From Escherichia phage vB_EcoM_NBG1, in sequence record MH243438.1: a DNA stretch of 64,000 nt; one strand, written 5' to 3'. The position numbers and the translations under genes are program-made. Each line of letters opens with the position of its first letter. Position 1 is the stretch's first letter. Shown here piece after piece: positions 2,529 through 46,934 of the stretch. The notes below the pieces were generated by a model that was not told where the DNA came from, did no database searches, and saw only the letters and a program-made list of their open reading frames with translations.

Positions 2529-3629
2529 TTACGCTGTGAAGATTTTATCCCACATCGCAACAACTGCATCTCGATTATACTTCTTCCATACTGCTTCAGC
2601 ACGTTTAACTCGAGCTTCGTATGTGTCAGTGAATTCTAATACAGCTTTTGTGTAAAGCGCAACTACTTCTTTCTTAGGAGTAGAGGAATCAATTTCTACA
2701 CGCACAGTATCTGGGTCATATTCGAATGTCGCGTGCGGATAATCCTTAAAAACTAACTGAATCACAGGGACACCTTTAGAGATGGCTTCAATAGAACTAT
2801 TCTCTACCGTACCCGTGTCAGGACACGTATTAATAAGTGCTTTAGCTGTTTTAAGACGTTCCATGATTTCACTGTGTGGAGCATCAATAATAACAGGATA
2901 CTTAGCCGGTGGTGCCCATTTACTAGGACAGTATCCTACACCATTTTCGCCTAGTGCTTTAATCGCTTCAAGAGCAACATCAGTACGACGCATTTTAGTG
3001 TCATAACGTTGTGCACTAATAATCAGATCAGTCGCCGTAAGAACTTCAGGTTTATCATTCAAACAAATAACCGGATAATCTTCGGCTTCAAACAACGGAT
3101 TTGCTCGCCAATAATCATAATCAATTTTGTCAGTCAGACCTGAAGTCATATAACAATATTTGCGTTCAAATTCACGGAAGGCTTTAGTAGGAGCATAACT
3201 CTTACCACCGTTCTTATGAATTTGAATAGTCTGGTCCCAAATTTGAACAATGCCACGAGATACCGGTTCAAATGGTGTTGCCATAAAATTCTTATGAACT
3301 TTAGAGAGACCCGCGTCTTTAATTGCCTGAACGGTTAGTTTAGTCGGTTCCATAGTAACAACAAAATCATATTCATGGATGCCGGCTAGTTCAACAATCT
3401 TACGAGCCATAGTATAACTCATACCTAGACTGAATTTAGTCAGATGACCAACAGGATGATGATTAACCTTCCAATCACCAAATGTGTCATTATCAAAACC
3501 GATATAATCAATATCAGCACCGATGGACACAAGATATTTCAACACATTTAAATGTACTGCTTCAAGACCACCTTGTACACGTTCTGGGTTAAATGGGACT
3601 GCACGAGATGGGATAAACATAACTTTCAT
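2529..3629 (-). CDS. putative glycosyltransferase (candidate DNA hmC sugar transferase)
   Basis: 366-aa ORF; N-terminus MKVMFIPSRA..GGLE loosely resembles T4 alpha-glucosyltransferase start; sits in an insert between rIIA.1 and gene 39 that T4 lacks. Confidence 0.55.
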   Translation of the reverse strand: MKVMFIPSRAVPFNPERVQGGLEAVHLNVLKYLVSIGADIDYIGFDNDTFGDWKVNHHPVGHLTKFSLGMSYTMARKIVELAGIHEYDFVVTMEPTKLTVQAIKDAGLSKVHKNFMATPFEPVSRGIVQIWDQTIQIHKNGGKSYAPTKAFREFERKYCYMTSGLTDKIDYDYWRANPLFEAEDYPVICLNDKPEVLTATDLIISAQRYDTKMRRTDVALEAIKALGENGVGYCPSKWAPPAKYPVIIDAPHSEIMERLKTAKALINTCPDTGTVENSSIEAISKGVPVIQLVFKDYPHATFEYDPDTVRVEIDSSTPKKEVVALYTKAVLEFTDTYEARVKRAEAVWKKYNRDAVVAMWDKIFTA

Positions 3630-15335: not shown

Positions 15336-15857
15336 TCAGTAACCATTATCCTGACGTTCAAAGTTGTGTTGGTTTTTCAAGTAGTAAAGTTTAAAGATTT
15401 CTTCAGCGGAAAGACCCAGACCTTGGAACATATTCAGAACAAAGTGGAGGATATCAATCATCTCGAATTTAATTTCAAGCTGGTCTTCAGGAGACAGTTC
15501 ATCGATACGACGATTACGATATTCAGCATGTTGTGCTTTCCATGGCTTCCATACACTGCTGGCGGCTTTTTCACCATTGCTCATACCGCCAAGTGAAGTC
15601 AGCAGTTCACGGAATTCATCATCAATATAATCTTTCTGATTACGCAGCCAATCAACAACATCACCAGCAGTAGCCAATTCATCAGGATGTTTGTTATGTT
15701 CAGGCTTGTCATTTGCCAGACGAACTTGTAAAGATTTCTGCATATCAAGCATTACCTGCAGTGGGTCTTTATCTTCGTGAATCAGAGCATTAAAATAAGC
15801 TTCTTCTGCTTTATCAACACCAGAAATAAGTTGTGAACATTCGTTAAAGTGCGCCAT
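15336..15857 (-). CDS. 56: dCTP pyrophosphatase (dCTPase/dUTPase, MazG-like)
   Basis: 173 aa from MAHFNEC..; strong resemblance to remembered T4 gp56; SD AAAGGA. Confidence 0.85.
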   Translation of the reverse strand: MAHFNECSQLISGVDKAEEAYFNALIHEDKDPLQVMLDMQKSLQVRLANDKPEHNKHPDELATAGDVVDWLRNQKDYIDDEFRELLTSLGGMSNGEKAASSVWKPWKAQHAEYRNRRIDELSPEDQLEIKFEMIDILHFVLNMFQGLGLSAEEIFKLYYLKNQHNFERQDNGY

Positions 15858-23727: not shown

Positions 23728-24276
23728 TTAACGAGCCCATTTGATAATTTCTGTAATCAAATCATTACGTTCGCTTGCGTTAAATCCTATAACTTTGTTA
23801 GCACCATCATGATTAAGTAATTGATACGTTTGGATTTCGTTATGAATTGCAAACTCTTCAAAATGTGAAATGACTGTATTAAAACCGAATGAAGACAAAG
23901 TAATAAGGTCGTCTTCAAAACTTTCAGTCATTTCGTTACGTGTTAAAATAATTGTGAACACATCATGGTTTTGGCAAAGACGAACATAATCCTGTTCATA
24001 AACGTCAAGAACCGAGTCCGCATCTTGTCGAATACGTCCATAAACCCAGTTACTAATATATCCACGGTCTAACAGATAAATCTTAGTAGGGTCTAAATAA
24101 TTCAACATTGTTTCGAAACAGCCAACTTCATTTCGAGACTTAACATCGAAACGTCCATCAACTGTTCGTTTAGGGAAATCAATCTTTACATATCTTTCAC
24201 TAATTTCCATTATGTCATTAATGAAAGTTGTTTTACCAGCGTTATCCGGGCCATCTACTAAAATAATTTTAGCCAT
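23728..24276 (-). CDS. P-loop nucleoside/nucleotide kinase-like protein
   Basis: 182 aa; Walker A VDGPDNAGKTT and DRGY motif typical of dNMP/thymidylate-kinase-like enzymes; sits where T4 has beta-gt. Confidence 0.6.
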   Translation of the reverse strand: MAKIILVDGPDNAGKTTFINDIMEISERYVKIDFPKRTVDGRFDVKSRNEVGCFETMLNYLDPTKIYLLDRGYISNWVYGRIRQDADSVLDVYEQDYVRLCQNHDVFTIILTRNEMTESFEDDLITLSSFGFNTVISHFEEFAIHNEIQTYQLLNHDGANKVIGFNASERNDLITEIIKWAR

Positions 24277-24277
24277 T

Positions 24278-25177
24278 TTATTCCTCGATTACGACATCTT
24301 CGTATTTAGGTATATTATACGGTGAAGAAATTAAAGCATTAAAGTAGATGAACTCACCAAGACCTGGATGAAATACTTCTTCAGGATTTTCGAAATATTG
24401 AATCTTCGGACGTCCTTTAAGAATTTGATAGTACTCAGTTTTAGTTGGTTTAAAAATTCTAATCAGCGCTTCTTCAGGATACTTATTTCTGTCAAAGCTA
24501 TTATTTGGATCGGTTATATAAAGCGGTTGACCTAATTGAATTGCGCATTCAACCACTTGTTCAAAACGATAACATGGGTCACTAATTCGAAATGGATGAA
24601 AAATACCATCTAGATGAATAGGAGCCAAATCACCTACAAGACGCTGCATGATGGAAGGACGTATAACTTTCTGCGTTACGATAATCTTATTACCATCTGC
24701 ACCTGCGTTAACCAGCACTTCTTTTTGACGTTCATTCAACACAGTAGTTTGAAGTGAACGATTAACCGACAACATGTCGGTTTTTAAGAATTCGTCAATA
24801 TAAAAACGTGGTTTATTAGGGTCTGCAGTGATATTGAAATTGAATTCTACATCAAAAGCGCCGTCATATCCGGTGATATCTGTGATTAGAAAATCACAAT
24901 CATAATAAGCAATTAATGAATCAACCACAAATTCATTTTCAGACCAGAAATATTTACGAGTGTTATACGCGTTATCTTTATACCATAATGGAACAAACTT
25001 AAATTCCGGGAAAAGACGTTCGCATTCTTTAATATCAGATGCATTACGTGGATATGTAATCACATCACCTGGATTAGCACGGTGCAAATGAAGTTGGAAG
25101 TTGCCATCCTTAAGGATAGCATACTGTCCAGTTTCATAAGACCGCATACTCAAAATAGGTACGCGGAAAATAGCCAT
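24278..25177 (-). CDS. hypothetical protein (beta-gt syntenic position)
   Basis: 299-aa ORF between the P-loop kinase and gene 42; no confident motif. Confidence 0.6.
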   Translation of the reverse strand: MAIFRVPILSMRSYETGQYAILKDGNFQLHLHRANPGDVITYPRNASDIKECERLFPEFKFVPLWYKDNAYNTRKYFWSENEFVVDSLIAYYDCDFLITDITGYDGAFDVEFNFNITADPNKPRFYIDEFLKTDMLSVNRSLQTTVLNERQKEVLVNAGADGNKIIVTQKVIRPSIMQRLVGDLAPIHLDGIFHPFRISDPCYRFEQVVECAIQLGQPLYITDPNNSFDRNKYPEEALIRIFKPTKTEYYQILKGRPKIQYFENPEEVFHPGLGEFIYFNALISSPYNIPKYEDVVIEE

Positions 25178-25893
25178 TAGTCAAGGAATCCTTTAACATA
25201 ATCAAAATCACGTTCAAACACATGGGCACTTACCATGGTATGAGTATAATCACCAACTTCTACACCACATTCGTTAGCGATATAATGAAGTAATTTTCCT
25301 TGGAGATAAAAATCCAACTGCATAACAACAGCACAGTTCTGAGAACGCATATGACAGTGGGTATAAAGCTTACCATCACGAATATAATAAGTCACTGAGT
25401 CAGTACATGGATATTCAAGCGTTTCGTCTGAATCAAGCAAAGCCTGATCAGAACTTTCTAGAATTTGGAACACAACTCTTCGGGAGTTAGGCTTCTCTTT
25501 AAGTTCTTTTAGAAGAGCTGGTAATTGGGCCGCAATGCGAGGACCATAGAAAGTGTTGAAGTTCGCCGGCAAAACATCTGATTTTGGTTTAGAAATAAAT
25601 TTAGCGACATTAGGATATGCCTTAAACGCTTCTTCTGCGTTGGTACCACCAGAAATCATAAACTTCCAGAAATCTTCAGCATATTCATAAGAGATGCGGT
25701 TAATACGTGGGTCGGTCATTTTGAATGTTGACGGAGTGTCAACAACTACTGTCATAGACCCAATTTCATTACAACGTCCAATACGAGAATCAGTTACGAA
25801 TTCCGGGTTTTCTAAAATTTCACGATTGACTGCTTTAAATGCGGCTTGAAAATCTGCGGCTTTGATATATTTCATTGTGTTATGTTTTCCCAT
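25177..25893 (-). CDS. 42: dCMP hydroxymethylase
   Basis: 238 aa; thymidylate-synthase-like, active-site region EYPCTDS; T4 gp42 position. Confidence 0.85.
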   Translation of the reverse strand: MGKHNTMKYIKAADFQAAFKAVNREILENPEFVTDSRIGRCNEIGSMTVVVDTPSTFKMTDPRINRISYEYAEDFWKFMISGGTNAEEAFKAYPNVAKFISKPKSDVLPANFNTFYGPRIAAQLPALLKELKEKPNSRRVVFQILESSDQALLDSDETLEYPCTDSVTYYIRDGKLYTHCHMRSQNCAVVMQLDFYLQGKLLHYIANECGVEVGDYTHTMVSAHVFERDFDYVKGFLD

Positions 25894-25934: not shown

Positions 25935-26174
25935 TTATTTGAATTTCTTAGTGATGTTGATATAACGTAGAGCTTCGGCATCGATACTTCCAAGAACACT
26001 ATGAAGAAATGCATCAGCGTAGTATTCCAATTGAACAGGTTCTTTAATCACTTTAGCCGCTTTGGTTTCAAACAGGCCCATAAGGGCCTTTTTAAGAATT
26101 TGTTCATTAGTGTTCAGTTTCATAGTCAAAATCTCTTCATTAAGTTGGTGGTTAAAAGTTTTTCTAGAAATCAT
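25935..26174 (-). CDS. hypothetical protein
   Basis: 79-aa ORF, start overlaps stop of the 386-aa gene. Confidence 0.5.
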   Translation of the reverse strand: MISRKTFNHQLNEEILTMKLNTNEQILKKALMGLFETKAAKVIKEPVQLEYYADAFLHSVLGSIDAEALRYINITKKFK

Positions 26175-27331
26175 TCCGGGTACCTCAAAGCGTCATCAGA
26201 GTTAGTTATATCAATAATAGATATAGAGTTTTCTGCTAACCCATTTTTAGATAACTGACGTTTATAATATCTTTCACAATATGTACACGTCGTCCCGCAG
26301 ATTTCATTAGCACAATCGAAATCTGGATGTCTGAACCACCTTTTTTCTAAAAAGCCATCTAACAAAGAGGTTTCAATATTTACTGTATGTGAAAACTCGG
26401 TCTCATTTTCAAGAGTGAAAATGGTCTCTAAAGGCTTCCACAATTCCAACAAATTACCTTCAAACTTTTCAGAAGCATAAGCTTCAAGAACTTTCAAAAT
26501 GTAGTCGGTGCTACCTGTACGTCCTGAAACTTTGAATTGAGTGATACCAATATCATTATAAAGTTTCAAATCTTGAGGACGAACAAAACGAGTTCTCAAC
26601 CAGTTAAATGGGTCTGTATCACGAGCTTTAATGCAGTGTTGCATTGGATATCCATTTAAGGATTTGGCATCATCTACTGTAACATCGGTGCTATGGAAAA
26701 TATAGCAAGAGTCACGATAGCTACAATGTGTTGTATACCCTTTACCAGCATTAGAACAGAACTCATTTACAAGAACTTCAAATATTATATTGTTCTTATT
26801 GCAAAACTCTGCTGCACGCTTCAGGAAAGAAACCGAACGGTTCTTATGAATTCCGCAACAGACTTTTTTGATGTTATATTGGTCATGCAAGTATTTGATT
26901 TGAGTTACAGCATCAACATGTAGAATTGTTGAAACTTCAATCTCAATGTCTTTATTGACTTCACGAACAATTTCCATAACAACAGGATTAGCGATAGTAA
27001 TACGCCATACGCCTATTGACCAAAGATACTGAACATAATCCTGAATAGCTTTCTTCTTCCACTCAACTAGTTCTCTTTTTGAACCAGGATTTATCGTGTT
27101 GAGTGTATAGTTAAAGCAAATACCTAATTCGTTACAACGTTTAACATAATCTTCTAACATCTTTTTGTCAACGTCAGGAAGCCTAAAATCAGGTCTGGCT
27201 GCTACAAAAGCCATTTCTCTTGTAGAGCCATATACTTCGTTTATCAAGCTATTAGGATAAGTTTTATTGAGCTCTACGATTTTATCAAGAAGAGCTAAAT
27301 CAAAATTCGTTCCGATTTTAAAAGTATTCAT
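26171..27331 (-). CDS. Cys-rich hypothetical enzyme (candidate Fe-S/metal-binding protein)
   Basis: 386 aa; Cys clusters CCGIH, FCSNAGKGYTTHCSYRDSC and C-terminal CANEICGTTCTYC (CX3CX-aromatic-C pattern); inside the sugar module. Confidence 0.65.
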   Translation of the reverse strand: MNTFKIGTNFDLALLDKIVELNKTYPNSLINEVYGSTREMAFVAARPDFRLPDVDKKMLEDYVKRCNELGICFNYTLNTINPGSKRELVEWKKKAIQDYVQYLWSIGVWRITIANPVVMEIVREVNKDIEIEVSTILHVDAVTQIKYLHDQYNIKKVCCGIHKNRSVSFLKRAAEFCNKNNIIFEVLVNEFCSNAGKGYTTHCSYRDSCYIFHSTDVTVDDAKSLNGYPMQHCIKARDTDPFNWLRTRFVRPQDLKLYNDIGITQFKVSGRTGSTDYILKVLEAYASEKFEGNLLELWKPLETIFTLENETEFSHTVNIETSLLDGFLEKRWFRHPDFDCANEICGTTCTYCERYYKRQLSKNGLAENSISIIDITNSDDALRYPE

Positions 27332-27387
27332 TTTTTTGCATCTCGCGTTAATTGATGCGATGGTTTTTGCAGGTCTTACTTAAATTA

Positions 27388-27789
27388 TTATAGATTCGGT
27401 TTATATGATTTAAATGTTTCGAATTCGCCTTTATTCATAAGAGCTTTGAATTCGTCAGGACGCATAGCTTTGTCGTCGATAATCCAATCATATACTGGTT
27501 TATGTGTTAGCAAATTATGGTACTTCAAGCCAATGTTTGCCAAGTTCTGAATCAGACTCGGGAGAATGTCAATTGCTATACGACCAGGACCTACTGACTT
27601 CATACCACGAGCAGTGTAAAGCGTTATGGTATGCCCTGCATCATACAGGGCATTAATGGCAGACACCATTTCGACGTCTGGTTTGAAGTTCACGTAATCA
27701 CGATTGTTATTCCACTCTGTTATACAATCATCGACATCAAAACAAAGATTAAGCATGTTTTCTACACGGTGCATTAGATTCGTTCCCAT
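27388..27789 (-). CDS. HAD-superfamily phosphatase (KdsC-like small sugar-phosphate phosphatase)
   Basis: 133 aa; HAD motif I FDVDDCIT, motif II TITLYTAR, motif III/IV K..IIDDKA. Confidence 0.7.
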   Translation of the reverse strand: MGTNLMHRVENMLNLCFDVDDCITEWNNNRDYVNFKPDVEMVSAINALYDAGHTITLYTARGMKSVGPGRIAIDILPSLIQNLANIGLKYHNLLTHKPVYDWIIDDKAMRPDEFKALMNKGEFETFKSYKPNL

Positions 27790-29459
27790 TGATGAGTGAT
27801 ATCGCCACCGATTGGACGATAGGAAACACCAGTTTCTTTATCAGTTAGTACCCATTTACCAGGATTTTTTGTAATCAGAGTAGCCGTTACAGGTTCTGCT
27901 ACGTCATAACTAATAGAGCCGTCTTGAAGTACACGGCCCATGTTACGTAATTGCTTAGTCAGAAGTTCCATACCTTTATAATATGCGGCTACCGCTTTAA
28001 GTGGATTATTCTTGAAATAACCACCTAATGCAATCCAGATAATTGCTACAGCCAAATGATGATATTCATTAAACGAACTCAGCTTTCCATATTTGTAAAC
28101 TAATGGATTGATGTTAATAGTCACATTACAAGTTGTTTCATCAATAGTAAACTGTCCCCAGGTCGGATTAGCGTTGAATTCATCATAACCTGAAACAGCG
28201 TAAAGCACTTTAGCTTCATCATACAATTTTGGCCCGTAAATCTTGGTTTCACCAAAATATCCACGAGGGTCGATAAACTTGACTTCGCCATTATCAGTAA
28301 TCATAGTATTACTGAAGTTCGGGTCGCCATGAATAACAGAGTACTGTCCCTGAGAACGGTTATGATAACGAATAAGGTGTTCTAAAGCTTGTTTCAGCAT
28401 TGGCTTCAGACGTCCAATCTTAGTGTAGTTCACATGTGTGATTTTACCAAATGAATCAATCAACGGTTGAATGCTTTCACAACGATCAATAACTTTCGTA
28501 TAGAATTCTTTAGTGAAATCACGACGAACAGTTTCAGGACTTACAAAATAAGTGTCTGTGCTGAATTTCAGTGCATCTAAAATTGCATCAACAATTTGTG
28601 GACGAGCAAGACTTGATTTGGATTTAATATATTCAAATGCTGGCTTACCTTTAATGCGTTCCATTTCAAAGTTATTTTCATTAACAGAAACTAACTGAGG
28701 AACTGAATCTGATTTCACTTTCAAATACCACGAAATCTCATCTTTCTGAAGAGCTCGTCCCTGTTCGGTTAATGCGAATTTAGTTACAGTTTCTTCACCA
28801 ATTTCAACTGCATTAAAACTACGATTAAGTTCACGAACTTCATGAGCCTTTTCAAGTTTAGGCATATCACCTAAATCAATTAGATTCATAAGCTCTGATT
28901 TATTGAATGCGCCACTGTAAAGGAATTCTACGAAATCACGTCCTTTGCAGTATTCATGAATTTCCTCATCAGTAGAACCCATGTAGAATTCCCAGTCTTT
29001 GAACTGGTAAATTCCCACAACATTACCGCCTGTTGCACCTACATTAGTGATATTTTCACCGTCGAAATTATATCGACATTCGTCACCCTTAACATAGATT
29101 GCGTTAACATTCCAAGACCATGAACCAAAATCGGGAATAATATCACACCAGTTAACAATTACGTTATGGCCGTCTAAATCTTTGTGTAATTTAGCAAGAG
29201 CATAAGCAGAACCATACGCTTCATCAACTGTACGAATAGTCACATTGAACCCTTCTTGCTCGCAATAAGCTCGAACAGTTTCAGCAAATTTTGAATGAAC
29301 TACTACAATAATTTCATCTGCGCCAAGGCCAGAATAAATTGTATACAAATTGCTCAGAATAGTGTCTTGTTTATAGTTAACAAGCACCTTAGGAATATGA
29401 TGCGTTATTGGATACAAACGAGTCGCCAGTCCAGCACCAAGAATAACAGCTTTTTTCAT
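27774..29459 (-). CDS. bifunctional sugar-1-phosphate nucleotidyltransferase / sugar kinase
   Basis: 561 aa; N-terminal ILGAGLATRLYPIT..PK nucleotidyltransferase signature; C-terminal APH/choline-kinase-like VIHGDPNFSNT..FIDPRGYFG. Confidence 0.8.
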   Translation of the reverse strand: MKKAVILGAGLATRLYPITHHIPKVLVNYKQDTILSNLYTIYSGLGADEIIVVVHSKFAETVRAYCEQEGFNVTIRTVDEAYGSAYALAKLHKDLDGHNVIVNWCDIIPDFGSWSWNVNAIYVKGDECRYNFDGENITNVGATGGNVVGIYQFKDWEFYMGSTDEEIHEYCKGRDFVEFLYSGAFNKSELMNLIDLGDMPKLEKAHEVRELNRSFNAVEIGEETVTKFALTEQGRALQKDEISWYLKVKSDSVPQLVSVNENNFEMERIKGKPAFEYIKSKSSLARPQIVDAILDALKFSTDTYFVSPETVRRDFTKEFYTKVIDRCESIQPLIDSFGKITHVNYTKIGRLKPMLKQALEHLIRYHNRSQGQYSVIHGDPNFSNTMITDNGEVKFIDPRGYFGETKIYGPKLYDEAKVLYAVSGYDEFNANPTWGQFTIDETTCNVTININPLVYKYGKLSSFNEYHHLAVAIIWIALGGYFKNNPLKAVAAYYKGMELLTKQLRNMGRVLQDGSISYDVAEPVTATLITKNPGKWVLTDKETGVSYRPIGGDITHQWERI

Positions 29460-29500: not shown

Positions 29501-29644
29501 CTAGTTAAAGCATTCATACTTTGCTTGTAGTCCAATCATAATCCATCCAATTACAAGTGTTGGAATCATTACTGGAGCCGTTAAGCTCCAGTAGATAGTC
29601 ATGACAAGCATCAATAGTAAAAGTCCTATTGTTATTGCTTTCAT
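29501..29644 (-). CDS. small membrane protein (47 aa)
   Basis: manually translated MKAITIGLLLLMLVMTIYWSLTAPVMIPTLVIGWIMIGLQAKYECFN; ATGA overlap with the isomerase stop. Confidence 0.35.
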   Translation of the reverse strand: MKAITIGLLLLMLVMTIYWSLTAPVMIPTLVIGWIMIGLQAKYECFN

Positions 29645-30276
29645 TGTTCGCCTCGTAACATGGCACCTAGTGCACCGCCTGGATGGAACTTAAGGAAATC
29701 ATTAGAGGTAAATCCACGTTCAGACGAAAGGTTGATAGCGAACGTATCGATAAGCGCTAACAACAATGTAGTAGACATTGTCGGAGCTAAAGAGTTCTCG
29801 TCAACTTCTACCGCGATACCGGTACAGAACGTATAATCAAAAAGAGCTTCGTATTCTTGTGGAATGTCAGGGTTACAATGTAACAGAATCTGTTTAACCT
29901 GAGGACGAATCATACGAAGATGTTTAGCAACACCTATCATTTCTTCAGTCTTACCAGAACGACTGATGTGAACTAATACATCATTAGGTGCAATAAATCC
30001 TGCGTCACCATGAGAATAATGCCCAGTGTTCAAGTACATACTTGGGATACCGAGTGAAGCAAAAGTCTCGGAAGCTTTAGTTGCGATATTAGCGTTCTTA
30101 CCAACACCTGTAATAATTACTCGGCTTTCATAATTACTAAGTCCCGGGCGTCGAAGAGTTTCTAGAATAGCATTATAACGAGCAGGGTTTTGACTAATTA
30201 CTTTAGCCATAGTGGCAAGAGATGAAGCTTGTTTTACGATTGCGTCAATAGCGATAGTGATTGGTGTAGTTTTCAT
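29641..30276 (-). CDS. D-arabinose-5-phosphate isomerase (SIS domain only, KdsD/GutQ-like)
   Basis: 211 aa; ITGVGKNANIATKASETFASLGIPS, ISRSGKTEE and FHPGGALG align with remembered E. coli KdsD SIS domain; no CBS domains. Confidence 0.85.
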   Translation of the reverse strand: MKTTPITIAIDAIVKQASSLATMAKVISQNPARYNAILETLRRPGLSNYESRVIITGVGKNANIATKASETFASLGIPSMYLNTGHYSHGDAGFIAPNDVLVHISRSGKTEEMIGVAKHLRMIRPQVKQILLHCNPDIPQEYEALFDYTFCTGIAVEVDENSLAPTMSTTLLLALIDTFAINLSSERGFTSNDFLKFHPGGALGAMLRGEQ

Positions 30277-44649: not shown

Positions 44650-45120
44650 TTAATCATGTTTCCACACCCCATCGGTATTTGACCAAAGTCGCTGATTATC
44701 TGATCCTCGCCACAGCTTTTTGGTCGGAAGATTTTTCTCATACTTCCCATCAATAATAACATCAACATATTTAAGCATTTCTAGTTGTTTAATATCTTCA
44801 AACTTATATCCTGTCCACAACCAAATGCTTTTACTGGGATAAAGATTTTTAATAGTTTGAACCACAGAGTGAATCACATCTCGGTTATCAGGATAGAGAG
44901 GGTCACCTCCGGTTATAGTCAATCCTTCTATATAATCATTATTCAAACATTCAATTAATTGTTCTAGTGTTTCACCAGTGAATGGAATACCATTTCTAGC
45001 ATTCCATGTTGATTTATTATAACACCCTTCACATTTATGCAAACAACCTGTAACGAAAAGAACGACCCTGCAACCAGGGCCATTCACAAAATCGCAAGGA
45101 TAAAATCTATCATAATTCAT
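44650..45120 (-). CDS. nrdG: anaerobic ribonucleotide reductase activating protein (radical SAM)
   Basis: 156 aa; radical SAM cluster CLHKCEGC; start overlaps nrdD stop. Confidence 0.85.
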   Translation of the reverse strand: MNYDRFYPCDFVNGPGCRVVLFVTGCLHKCEGCYNKSTWNARNGIPFTGETLEQLIECLNNDYIEGLTITGGDPLYPDNRDVIHSVVQTIKNLYPSKSIWLWTGYKFEDIKQLEMLKYVDVIIDGKYEKNLPTKKLWRGSDNQRLWSNTDGVWKHD

Positions 45121-46934
45121 TGGTGTTTAACCCTATGCATGATTTCTTTATTTTTACCGAGATTAAATCCGCGTTCGTTCGGATTTCCCAAATAGCCGCA
45201 TGTTCTTCTTATTGTGTTCATCTTTTTAGGATCAGTTTCTCCACAGATAGAACAAACAAATCCGTTTTCAGTAGGAGTCATTTCATGAGTACTTCCGCAT
45301 GTAAAACATTTATCTACTGGCATATTAACACCAAAATAATCTAAATGTTGTGCAGCATAATCCCACACGGCCTCAAGACCTTTTAAGTTATTTTTCATAT
45401 CAGGAAGTTCAACATAAGAAATGTGACCACCTGTCGCAATGAAATGATATGGCGCTTCACGAGAAATCTTTTCAAACGGAGTAATATTTTCTTCTACTGA
45501 AACGTGGAAACTGTTAGTGTACCAGCCTTTATCGGTAACATATTTTACACTTCCATATTTTTCTGTATCAAGTTTACAGAAGCGGTAACAAAGGTTTTCA
45601 GCAGGAGTCGAATATAAACTAAAAGCAAATCCAGTTCTTTCAGTCCATTGCTTAAGATGAGCATTCATTTTAGTTAAAATTTCTTGTCCAATATCACGAC
45701 CAACAAGAATATTCAATTCGTGAATACCAATGTATCCTAAAGACACTGAACTTCTACCGTTTTTAAATAACTCAATTATGTCGTCATCAGGTTTAAGACG
45801 AACCCCGAATGCACCTTCTTGGTAAAGAATAGGAGCAACAGTCGCTTTAACTCCTTTTAAGGAACTAATTCTACACATCAAAGCTTCAAAACACAGGTCC
45901 ATTCGTTCGTTAAATAGCTCAACAAATTTCTGTTCATTGAACTGTGTTCCAATATAAGAATCTAACGCAATACGAGGAAGATTCAGTGTTACAACACCAA
46001 GATTATTACGTCCATCAAGAATTTCATTACCAGTCGAATCTTTCCATACGCTCAAGAAACTACGGCAACCCATCGGAGAAACAGGAACTGAAGAACCGGT
46101 AATAGCTTTATTATTCTTAACCGAAATAATGTCAGGATACATTCTTTTGCTTGCACATTCTAACGCAAGTTGTTTAATATCATAGTTTGGATCATCTTTA
46201 TAAAGATTAACACCTTCTTCAACAAACATAACAAGCTTAGGGAAAATAGGAGTTATCCCATCACGACCAAGACCTTTAATACGATTTTTCAGAATTGCTT
46301 TCTGAATCATTCGTTCAGTCCAGTCAGTTCCCGTACCAAATGTAATTGTTACAAAAGGCGTTTGCCCGTTTGAACTAAAAAGAGTATTTACTTCATATTC
46401 ATAAGCTTGGAATGCATCGTATACATCTTTTTCTGTTTTAGATTGAGCATAATTCAACGCATCAGCGATTTGCCATTTTTCTGCATCCTCAATATGTTTT
46501 GCATAGGTGCGTTTAACATAAGGAGAAAGTACTTTATCTACATTAGCAAAAGTCGTTCCGCCGTATTGATGGGAAGCAACTTGTGCAGTAATTTGTGCCA
46601 TAACTGCAGTAGCAACACCAATCGATTTAGGCGTTTCAATTTGAGCATTGCCTAATTTAAATCCGTTCTCAAGCATCCCCTTTAAATCGACTAAACAGCA
46701 ATTAGTAAATGGAAGAGCAGGGGAATAATCAATATCGTGGAAATGGATAATTCCGCTTTCGTGTGCTTTCATAATAAAAGACGGGACCATATTTTTGGCA
46801 ATGTGTTTAGACACAATACCAGCCATAAGGTCCCGTTGAGTTGGAAAAACACGAGAATCTTTATTAGCATTCTCGTTTAAAAGGTCTTTATTAGTTTTAT
46901 GAATCAGTCCTTCAATTTCTTTTTCAATTTTCAT
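45117..46934 (-). CDS. nrdD: anaerobic ribonucleoside-triphosphate reductase
   Basis: 605 aa; glycyl radical site RRTCGYLG; C-terminal zinc site CFTCGS..CSICG; uninterrupted ORF (no intron). Confidence 0.92.
   Translation of the reverse strand: MKIEKEIEGLIHKTNKDLLNENANKDSRVFPTQRDLMAGIVSKHIAKNMVPSFIMKAHESGIIHFHDIDYSPALPFTNCCLVDLKGMLENGFKLGNAQIETPKSIGVATAVMAQITAQVASHQYGGTTFANVDKVLSPYVKRTYAKHIEDAEKWQIADALNYAQSKTEKDVYDAFQAYEYEVNTLFSSNGQTPFVTITFGTGTDWTERMIQKAILKNRIKGLGRDGITPIFPKLVMFVEEGVNLYKDDPNYDIKQLALECASKRMYPDIISVKNNKAITGSSVPVSPMGCRSFLSVWKDSTGNEILDGRNNLGVVTLNLPRIALDSYIGTQFNEQKFVELFNERMDLCFEALMCRISSLKGVKATVAPILYQEGAFGVRLKPDDDIIELFKNGRSSVSLGYIGIHELNILVGRDIGQEILTKMNAHLKQWTERTGFAFSLYSTPAENLCYRFCKLDTEKYGSVKYVTDKGWYTNSFHVSVEENITPFEKISREAPYHFIATGGHISYVELPDMKNNLKGLEAVWDYAAQHLDYFGVNMPVDKCFTCGSTHEMTPTENGFVCSICGETDPKKMNTIRRTCGYLGNPNERGFNLGKNKEIMHRVKHQ

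Follow-up and report, generated by a model that had tools for sequence, protein, structure and literature searches.

The 64,000-nucleotide stretch analyzed here, below called the window, belongs to Escherichia phage vB_EcoM_NBG1 (MH243438.1), a member of Mosigvirus, a genus of RB69-like relatives of T4 in many of which the DNA of the module region is 98% identical. At 26171..27331 of its minus strand an open reading frame (ORF) with an ATG start encodes a protein of 386 amino acids (aa), which is the orthologue of RB69 ORF050c (99.2% identity) and which we assign with near certainty to the U32 family. Its function is proposed, at what we regard as an even chance, to be that of an O2-independent, prephenate-dependent hydroxylase of a deoxycytidine (dC) nucleotide, that is, an anaerobic isozyme of the ThyA-like 5-hydroxy-dCMP (5hodCMP) synthase encoded in the same module.

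The assignment to U32 is based on a match to Pfam PF01136 (Peptidase_U32) at aa 94-286, with 42.4 bits against a gathering score of 22.4 (E 6.3e-11). It was the only Pfam domain found in the 386 aa, and nearly all homologues carry precomputed matches to the same model. An AlphaFold model calculated from 30 sequences was confident (pLDDT 90, pTM 0.89) and displayed a TIM barrel, as the U32 domain requires, with a four-Cys site in the C-terminal part after the barrel. Thus Pfam score, fold and the aligned motifs described below supply the family that the original prediction, made from the letters of the window, had held to be unassignable. Searches of PDB by sequence gave no match with phmmer and only a chance match to BIM1 with a profile. 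When the family profile was compared with the four characterised U32 proteins of E. coli MG1655, RlhA was matched best (E 2.4e-5 over 203 columns), at an hhalign probability of 76%, which denotes marginal similarity; TrhP (E 0.004, N-terminal part only), UbiU (0.01) and UbiV (0.14) followed. DUF3656, the additional domain of RlhA, was not found by Pfam, no further domain was detected that would correspond to the C-terminal extension of TrhP, and of the TrhP pair C193-x3-C197 only the first position has an equivalent, C233. As the extra domains of RlhA and TrhP are lacking and the UbiU equivalog model (NCBIfam NF047963) yields 19.4 bits against a cut-off of 440, the protein is, judged from its sequence, a member of a distinct and uncharacterised U32 subfamily, for which an exhaustive search returned 466 representative clusters at E<=1e-30 and 1,128 at E<=1e-10.

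Some of the residues that matter in the characterised U32 proteins have counterparts in the phage protein. In a MAFFT alignment E190 coincides with E161 of RlhA; C203 with C169 of RlhA, C170 of TrhP and C169 of UbiU; C209 with C176, C177, C176 and C180 of RlhA, TrhP, UbiU and UbiV; and C233 with C192 of RlhA and C193 of each of the other three. K267-x2-G270-R271 aligns with FKIEGR (RlhA), LKIEGR (TrhP) and VKIEGR (UbiU), and its K267 and R271 are kept in 100% of a wide set of 127 full-length representatives of the family with a median identity of 27%. The PROSITE signature of U32, which we take to be E-x-F-x2-G-[SA]-[LIVM]-C-x4-G-x-C, is not matched literally, the protein having E-F-C-x10-C-x5-C, where a loop is inserted and the two Cys stand one residue closer together. 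Three of the four canonical positions of 4Fe-4S ligands are filled in the alignment (C203, C209, C233). Among the corresponding residues C169 and C176 of RlhA are essential and E161 nearly so (PMC5727448), and C176 of UbiU is required for its 4Fe-4S cluster; C580 and C611 near the C-terminus of RlhA are likewise essential. The likely fourth ligand is C192, which is specific to the family and almost universal in it; a precedent for such a substitute is set by C232, the non-canonical fourth ligand of UbiU. Hence C192/C203/C209/C233 are proposed as ligands of a [4Fe-4S] cluster in the catalytic domain, and C340/C345/C349/C352 as a putative second site, either Fe-S (electron-transfer) or Zn.

That the ORF is rich in Cys had been described correctly, as its 13 Cys make up 3.4% of the protein and the median among the window's ORFs of 150 aa or more is 1.2%. 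The three Cys motifs reported for it were all recovered, VCCGIH (C158, C159) as given, the middle one as NEFC192-x10-C203-x5-C209 with a first spacing of ten and not eleven residues, and the C-terminal C345GTTC349TYC352 with an additional conserved Cys to be included, so that it reads C340-x4-C345-x3-C349-x2-C352. Whether these Cys are kept among homologues had been put forward as a check on the prediction, and they are: ten are found without exception in 30 relatives that are 46-85% identical, and across the 127 representatives C192 is retained in 99%, C233 in 100% and the four C-terminal Cys in 76-87%, which is far above chance. C66, C72 and C159, the second Cys of the CC pair, are not conserved. 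With regard to the N-terminus, an A-run precedes the start at 27329-27343 on the minus strand, which is A7 in the window (ATGCAAAAAAATGAAT) and A6 in RB69; due to the A7 an upstream ATG (27341) is out of frame in the window. The RB69 start is annotated three codons earlier (MQKMNTF), and 390 aa are annotated in phages JK36 and Entb_45; the true start is likely the ATG at 27331, which is common to these phages.

The U32 proteins of known function introduce hydroxyl groups, RlhA forming 5-hydroxycytidine (ho5C) in rRNA, TrhP 5-hydroxyuridine (ho5U) in tRNA and UbiU/V hydroxylated ubiquinone precursors. All are independent of O2 and require prephenate, which was identified as the oxygen donor of UbiU/V by 18O labelling. 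DAHP (3-deoxy-D-arabino-heptulosonate 7-phosphate) synthase catalyzes the first step of the shikimate pathway, and chorismate mutase (CM) produces prephenate. Genes for both were found beside U32 genes in phages. In Enterobacter phage Entb_45 the gene overlapping the end of U32 encodes a type II CM (40.9 bits to CM_2, whose cut-off is 27), and in Shewanella phage Thanatos-2 a CM_2 (32.8 bits) likewise lies at the U32 end, the module being rearranged and U32 and CM still together. A tblastn search with this CM retrieved 56 phage records and, among the matches listed, the gene stood next to those for U32/ThyA homologue.

This linkage was followed in 47 loci from IMG/VR and six metagenomic loci, the neighbouring ORFs of which were clustered and their calls confirmed with Pfam/NCBIfam; CM was sought with a hidden Markov model (cm2) built from neighbour cluster 3 and confirmed by Pfam, and U32 lineages, 29 altogether, were defined at 80% identity. 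CM and/or DAHP synthase occurs within 0-628 bp of U32 on the same strand in seven of these lineages. The T4-like lineage has CM in 13 of 15 loci, two lineages have CM_2 (52-55 bits) and two others DAHP synthase directly downstream, the latter with 221 bits to DAHP synthase models against 67 to 3-deoxy-D-manno-octulosonate 8-phosphate (KDO8P) synthase, and two more carry a fusion of DAHP synthase and CM about 600 bp upstream (DAHP_synth_1 88.7-125.4 bits, CM_2 64.9-71.8 bits). Since three architectures are present in lineages only 45-55% identical in U32, these gene orders are better explained by a functional link than by a single block having been inherited. The fusions were seen on four IMG/VR contigs (L041:8411-9433, L043:9-971, L044:7302-8357 and L045), with DAHP synthase as the N-terminal and CM as the C-terminal domain, presumably the reverse of the order in AroA(G) of Bacillus.

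The module in which the gene lies had been taken for one that makes a sugar-modified hydroxymethylcytosine; the base in question is a different one, as RB69 DNA was shown to contain 5-hydroxycytosine in mono- and di-arabinosylated form (Lee et al. NAR 2026; PMC13326640). Its neighbour, the ThyA homologue, corresponds to gp48 of RB69, which makes 5-hydroxy-dCMP with flavin and takes the oxygen atom from O2, as shown by 18O2 labelling (PMC13326640). What is assigned to the remaining genes of the module (Table 1) agrees with that study. No similarity to ThyA, whose fold with the signature D169N marks the 5hodCMP synthase, was found in the U32 protein, and the relation between the two would be one of functional analogy, not homology. 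Because a dCTP pyrophosphatase removes dCTP, the phage would depend on the modified dC nucleotide for its replication; because NrdD and NrdG are encoded in the window, deoxynucleotides could be made without O2, the known route to modified dC still being O2-dependent. With all cytosine replaced by arabinosyl-5-hydroxycytosine, the O2-dependent enzyme could not supply the base in anoxia, for example in the gut, and the U32 enzyme would fill this gap, much as NrdD/NrdG serve as a backup to the aerobic ribonucleotide reductase.

The reaction would be a hydroxylation of pyrimidine C5, most likely from dCMP to 5-hydroxy-dCMP, with prephenate as oxygen donor. If modelled on UbiU/V, the cluster on C192/C203/C209/C233 would withdraw two electrons from the pyrimidine ring, prephenate would decarboxylate to phenylpyruvate while giving hydroxide to C5, and the site formed by C340/C345/C349/C352 would relay electrons to an acceptor. 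Prephenate might be provided by PheA/TyrA of the host in Mosigviruses, E. coli making it through these two enzymes, and by an own CM in most relatives. Of all this, family membership, fold, orthology, retention of the Cys, gene neighbourhoods and gene distribution were observed, and Fe-S binding, the use of prephenate, the substrate and the anaerobic role are inferred.

The distribution of the genes bears on this proposal. The AfhE-like marker of the pathway was present in 368 phage records including 57 Acinetobacter phages and one Pseudomonas phage, and U32 in 221 records, the listed hosts of which are all Enterobacterales or Shewanella; these counts leave no room for Acinetobacter, and no U32 was detected in the Acinetobacter or Pseudomonas phages having the same pathway. 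In Acinetobacter phage Apostate the HAD gene directly abuts the ThyA homologue. In IMG/VR the clade of the 5hodCMP synthase was encountered on 46 contigs and U32 on 47. Both occur together on 15, all of the T4-like lineage; 32 have U32 but no ThyA-type gene, 12 of them being 128-294 kb in length, and 31, including Dhakavirus, Acinetobacter and Pseudomonas phages, have the ThyA-type gene without U32. A broader search (hidden Markov model and phmmer) of the U32-only loci revealed a single gene of the ThyA family, a canonical ThyA in L031. Such a pattern of both or either is expected of two analogous enzymes for a single step, as in TrhO/TrhP. The distribution of NrdD was considered as a control for the oxygen lifestyle of the hosts and was too indirect to rely on.

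The neighbours of U32 in distant phages are deoxynucleotide and replication genes, namely an overlapping dCMP deaminase, deoxynucleoside kinase, NT5C, nucleoside deoxyribosyltransferase, dUTPase/DCD, a Tmk-like protein and Pol III alpha, which favours a nucleotide over the sugar as substrate. Another assumption, which we consider unlikely, is that the protein is a U32 Fe-S enzyme of the module with another task, be it reduction of a sugar or heterocycle, other tailoring or supply of UDP-arabinose. This assumption agrees with the position of the gene between sugar genes and base genes and with 38 distant loci, of which 15 have an arabinosyltransferase homologue, 11 an AfhE-like gene and 10 a SIS isomerase. 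Moreover, the DAHP synthase-family gene adjacent to U32 in L009/L029 also matches, more weakly, KDO8P synthase, which uses arabinose-5-phosphate, and the annotation in BASEL reads "putative enzyme involved in UDP-arabinose biosynthesis". In the study on RB69, ORF050c appears as a table entry only, as "Sugar or heterocycle reductase" based on a match to 5D88, and the discussion names tRNA hydroxylation pathways without linking them to ORF050c (PMC13326640). However, the Acinetobacter and Pseudomonas phages run the pathway with no U32 detected, DLP3 was shown to make the same arabinosylated base (PMC13326640), API, AfhE and AfhF reportedly suffice for the synthesis of UDP-arabinose, and no extra product was seen in RB69 DNA (PMC13326640). 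In several U32 loci sugar genes are lacking altogether, but dCMP deaminase, deoxynucleoside kinase and NT5C are present, and the linkage to CM and DAHP synthase would be left unexplained. To our knowledge, no U32 protein is a reductase.

Less probable still is an RNA hydroxylase comparable to RlhA or TrhP that modifies tRNA or rRNA of host or phage during infection. The two known pyrimidine-directed U32 enzymes do act on RNA, RlhA is the best profile match, and a linkage to prephenate would be expected equally. However, the domains that RlhA and TrhP possess in addition are missing from the 386 aa, U32 is kept inside DNA-modification or deoxynucleotide modules across very distant phages, and it is absent from related phages with the same translation needs.

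The C-terminal C345-x3-C349-x2-C352 had suggested a site of the radical S-adenosylmethionine (SAM) type, and a non-canonical enzyme of that kind is now very improbable. There was no match to PF04055 at E up to 0.1, and C340 equals the other three Cys in its degree of conservation, so the site would be fully ligated with no iron free for SAM. Fold and motifs are those of U32; the predicted structure, proposed earlier as a check on the family, turned out to be a confident U32-type barrel among the matches of which no canonical radical-SAM structure ranked specifically, ThiC scoring no better than generic TIM barrels. Radical SAM was therefore rejected for this protein, and of the earlier assumption of a metal- or Fe-S-dependent tailoring step in the modification pathway the Fe-S tailoring enzyme persists, as predicted from the sequence, without the radical-SAM site. 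A collagenase-like U32 peptidase, as suggested by the family name, by database labels ("peptidase", "putative protease") in many GenBank annotations and by collagenolytic activity reported for PrtC and HP0169, is the least credible reading, in that no proteolytic catalytic mechanism is known in the family, the conserved residues are predicted Fe-S ligands and the context is metabolism of nucleotides and DNA modification in every lineage sampled.

Several observations weigh against the proposed O2-independent hydroxylase. U32 hydroxylases have not yet been reconstituted in vitro and in vitro assays are still awaited (2024 PNAS paper), so that the chemistry of the family is inferred from genetics. 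The protein itself has no Cys at the position of the fourth canonical ligand, which is the second one in C-x3-C, and C203 and C209, within a poorly aligning loop, are kept in only about 60% of the 127 representatives. The linkage to CM or DAHP synthase is limited to the seven lineages mentioned, within the sequence visible; Mosigvirus, to which the phage belongs, and Marfavirus are without CM, and neither CM nor DAHP synthase is encoded in the 64-kb window. The co-occurrence with AfhE-like and SIS genes leaves room for a sugar-related role. The count of ThyA-type contigs results from a scan based on peptide patterns, and contigs with U32 only may be incomplete. Finally, Dhakaviruses such as IME08, which infect E. 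coli, have the ThyA-type gene and no U32, so this modification does not call for U32 in every enteric phage, and a rule that an enteric host always implies U32 was ruled out. The module of IME08 (L013) comprises AfhE-like, HAD, Tmk-like, ThyA homologue and glycosyltransferase genes and lacks both the SIS arabinose-5-phosphate isomerase and U32; this phage presumably relies on KdsD/GutQ of the host for arabinose-5-phosphate and would be without an O2-independent hydroxylase.

The closest functional analogy to the proposed hydroxylase is offered by TrhP and TrhO, a prephenate-dependent U32 protein and an unrelated O2-dependent enzyme that generate the same 5-hydroxypyrimidine, ho5U34 of tRNA; some genomes have both and others one, as is the case with phage U32 and the ThyA-type enzyme. 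Differences from the phage pair lie in the substrate, a uridine of tRNA, in the additional C-terminal domains of TrhP and in the O2-dependent enzyme, which is a rhodanese instead of a ThyA/flavin enzyme. RlhA (YdcP), acting on C2501 of E. coli 23S rRNA, shares the U32 domain, the four aligned residues and further Cys near the C-terminus, which are essential in RlhA and conserved here, and its prephenate- and Fe-S-dependent hydroxylation of cytosine C5 matches the proposed chemistry. However, it has 653 aa with DUF3656 and acts on a ribosome precursor, whereas the phage protein is without this domain and the second Cys of C-x3-C and has C192 instead. UbiU and UbiV, on which the 4Fe-4S ligands were defined, are anaerobic isozymes of the flavin mono-oxygenases UbiI/H/F; their substrate is a lipid, on which they act as a heterodimer assisted by UbiT. 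The phage protein differs in its second four-Cys site, and the window contains no other U32 gene that could encode a partner. The experimentally demonstrated flavin 5hodCMP synthase (RB69 gp48/HY126) would share product and pathway with the U32 protein, is encoded about 280 bp downstream of it and co-occurs with it in the T4-like lineage, but has the unrelated thymidylate synthase superfamily fold and needs O2 and flavin. MK0906, the U32 peptidase domain of Methanopyrus kandleri (PDB 5D88), is 14% identical and, with 247 residues, does not cover the Cys-rich C-terminal region.

If the proposal is right, a new class of substrate, deoxynucleotides, and a viral setting would be added to the U32 enzymes. 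Replication in the absence of O2 would then be explained for phages in which derivatives of 5-hydroxycytosine take the place of all cytosine; the only known synthase needs O2, yet such phages have gut bacteria as hosts and encode an anaerobic ribonucleotide reductase. The evidence for prephenate-dependent hydroxylation by U32 consists so far of genetics and isotope labelling, and a soluble single-subunit enzyme of 386 aa acting on a mononucleotide would be easier to handle than one acting on a ribosome precursor, tRNA or a membrane lipid and could give the first in vitro reconstitution. More tentatively, and at somewhat less than an even chance, it is suggested that the whole phage subfamily, with 466 or more clusters at 50% identity, represents the first O2-independent deoxynucleotide hydroxylase with prephenate as donor, backing up the ThyA-type enzyme in enteric T4-like phages and serving as sole hydroxylase, which feeds DNA glycosyltransferases, in many uncultivated phages, contigs of 190-294 kb included. 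If so, the fusions of DAHP synthase and CM in some such phages would raise the supply of prephenate, and hypermodified DNA based on 5-hydroxypyrimidines would be common in anoxic viromes. The proposed hydroxylase as such points to the shikimate-pathway genes of phages, CM and DAHP synthase, as suppliers of a cofactor for DNA hypermodification and flags a large number of uncultivated phages as probably having modified DNA, which is of relevance to phage therapy, evasion of restriction and CRISPR, and the sequencing of such genomes.

Table 1. Motifs of the U32 protein and further genes of the window, with the basis of each call.
Feature	Position	Strand	Basis
U32 core motif, aa 190-233 (E190-F191-C192 ... 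C203-x5-C209 ... C233)	26633..26764	-	translation, alignment, conservation
K267-V-S-G270-R271 ("K-I-E-G-R" motif of U32)	26519..26533	-	translation, alignment
Four-Cys site C340-x4-C345-x3-C349-x2-C352	26276..26314	-	translation; invariant in 30 relatives
79-aa ORF (RB69 ORF049c family, 94.9% identical)	25935..26174	-	ATG overlaps TGA of the U32 gene (ATGA)
ThyA homologue, orthologue of RB69 gp48	25177..25893	-	98.3% identity; diagnostic RSQN replaces canonical RSGD
First DNA arabinosyltransferase (RB69 gp46:47 family)	24278..25177	-	PHROG 3891; PMC13326640
Thymidylate-kinase-like nucleotide kinase (RB69 ORF045c, 100% identical)	23728..24276	-	PHROG 761
HAD phosphatase, AfhF-like, RB69 gp51; arabinofuranose-1,5-bisphosphate (Araf-1,5-P2) to Araf-1-P	27388..27789	-	NCBIfam TIGR01689; PMC13326640
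Bifunctional kinase and nucleotidyltransferase, AfhE-like, RB69 gp52:53; makes UDP-arabinofuranose	27774..29459	-	Pfam NTP_transferase, weak kinase-family matches; PMC13326640
Arabinose-5-phosphate isomerase, SIS domain, RB69 gp55	29641..30276	-	Pfam SIS, NCBIfam KpsF/KdsD
dCTP pyrophosphatase	15339..15857	-	tblastn with JK36 protein, 100% identity
NrdG and NrdD, anaerobic ribonucleotide reductase activase and reductase	44653-45120 (NrdG), 45120-46934 (NrdD)	-	tblastn, 97-99% identity to JK36
Second arabinosyltransferase (RB69 gp3 family)	2532..3629	-	tblastn 98.6%; PMC13326640

The public records of close relatives label the ThyA homologue "dCMP hydroxymethylase/thymidylate synthase", the HAD gene "phosphoheptose isomerase" and the AfhE-like gene "bifunctional protein GlmU", whereas the recent experiments on RB69/HY126 identified them as 5hodCMP synthase, Araf-1,5-P2 phosphatase and arabinose-5-phosphate kinase/UDP-Araf pyrophosphorylase, respectively; together with "peptidase" for U32, the names "dCMP hydroxymethylase", "GlmU" and "phosphoheptose isomerase" are in need of correction. 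The literature searched on U32 with RB69, or on U32 with chorismate mutase and phage, yielded only a Pfam match for RB69 ORF050c from 2006. The U32 gene had been placed between dCMP hydroxymethylase and the HAD phosphatase; the ThyA homologue is not directly adjacent, the 79-aa ORF intervening. This small protein had no match in Pfam/NCBIfam, contains no Cys and has a motif that is conserved, YYxDAFxHSxxGxIxAExxRHINxxKR. Its distribution is sporadic and includes Mosigvirus, Tegunavirus phiR1-RT (g049), Pectobacterium phage PM2 and Serratia phage 92A1, and it may assist the U32 enzyme as an accessory protein. That it might be a degenerate CM was rejected, as there was no CM_2 match and the hhalign probability against CM was 0.4%; phiR1-RT and Serratia phage 92A1 have both this gene and, next to it, one for CM. 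Another small ORF, of about 50 aa (29514-29666, minus strand), is located between the genes of the SIS isomerase and the AfhE-like protein; it corresponds to a hypothetical protein in JK36 and to ORF054c in RB69, where it was noted as similar to the T4 42-imm intercistronic region. A scan of the window for promoters and terminators gave fewer matches than expected by chance and was not used.

Among the distant loci, the metagenomic L007 (86 kb) and L008 (24 kb) possess two U32 paralogues clustered with radical-SAM/SPASM, deoxynucleoside kinase, NT5C, nucleoside deoxyribosyltransferase-like and nicotinamide mononucleotide transporter genes, and a neighbouring dockerin-bearing GH43 suggests that the host is perhaps a cellulolytic anaerobe. 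Radical-SAM/SPASM genes near U32 were also seen in L006 and L012. At 8001-14179 of L010, a contig of 60.9 kb, U32 overlaps a TAGT-like DNA glycosyltransferase, with dUTPase/DCD, UDP-galactopyranose mutase and another glycosyltransferase nearby; no gene of the ThyA family is in view at this locus, which may represent a galactofuranosyl-5-hydroxypyrimidine system with U32 as its only hydroxylase. Fifteen distant loci carry a HAD protein of about 200-220 aa resembling KdsC/KDN-9-P phosphatase, in several cases directly upstream of U32 (19-59 bp; e.g., L054:9280-9942), and since it replaces the AfhF-type HAD, the sugar pathway of those phages may differ.

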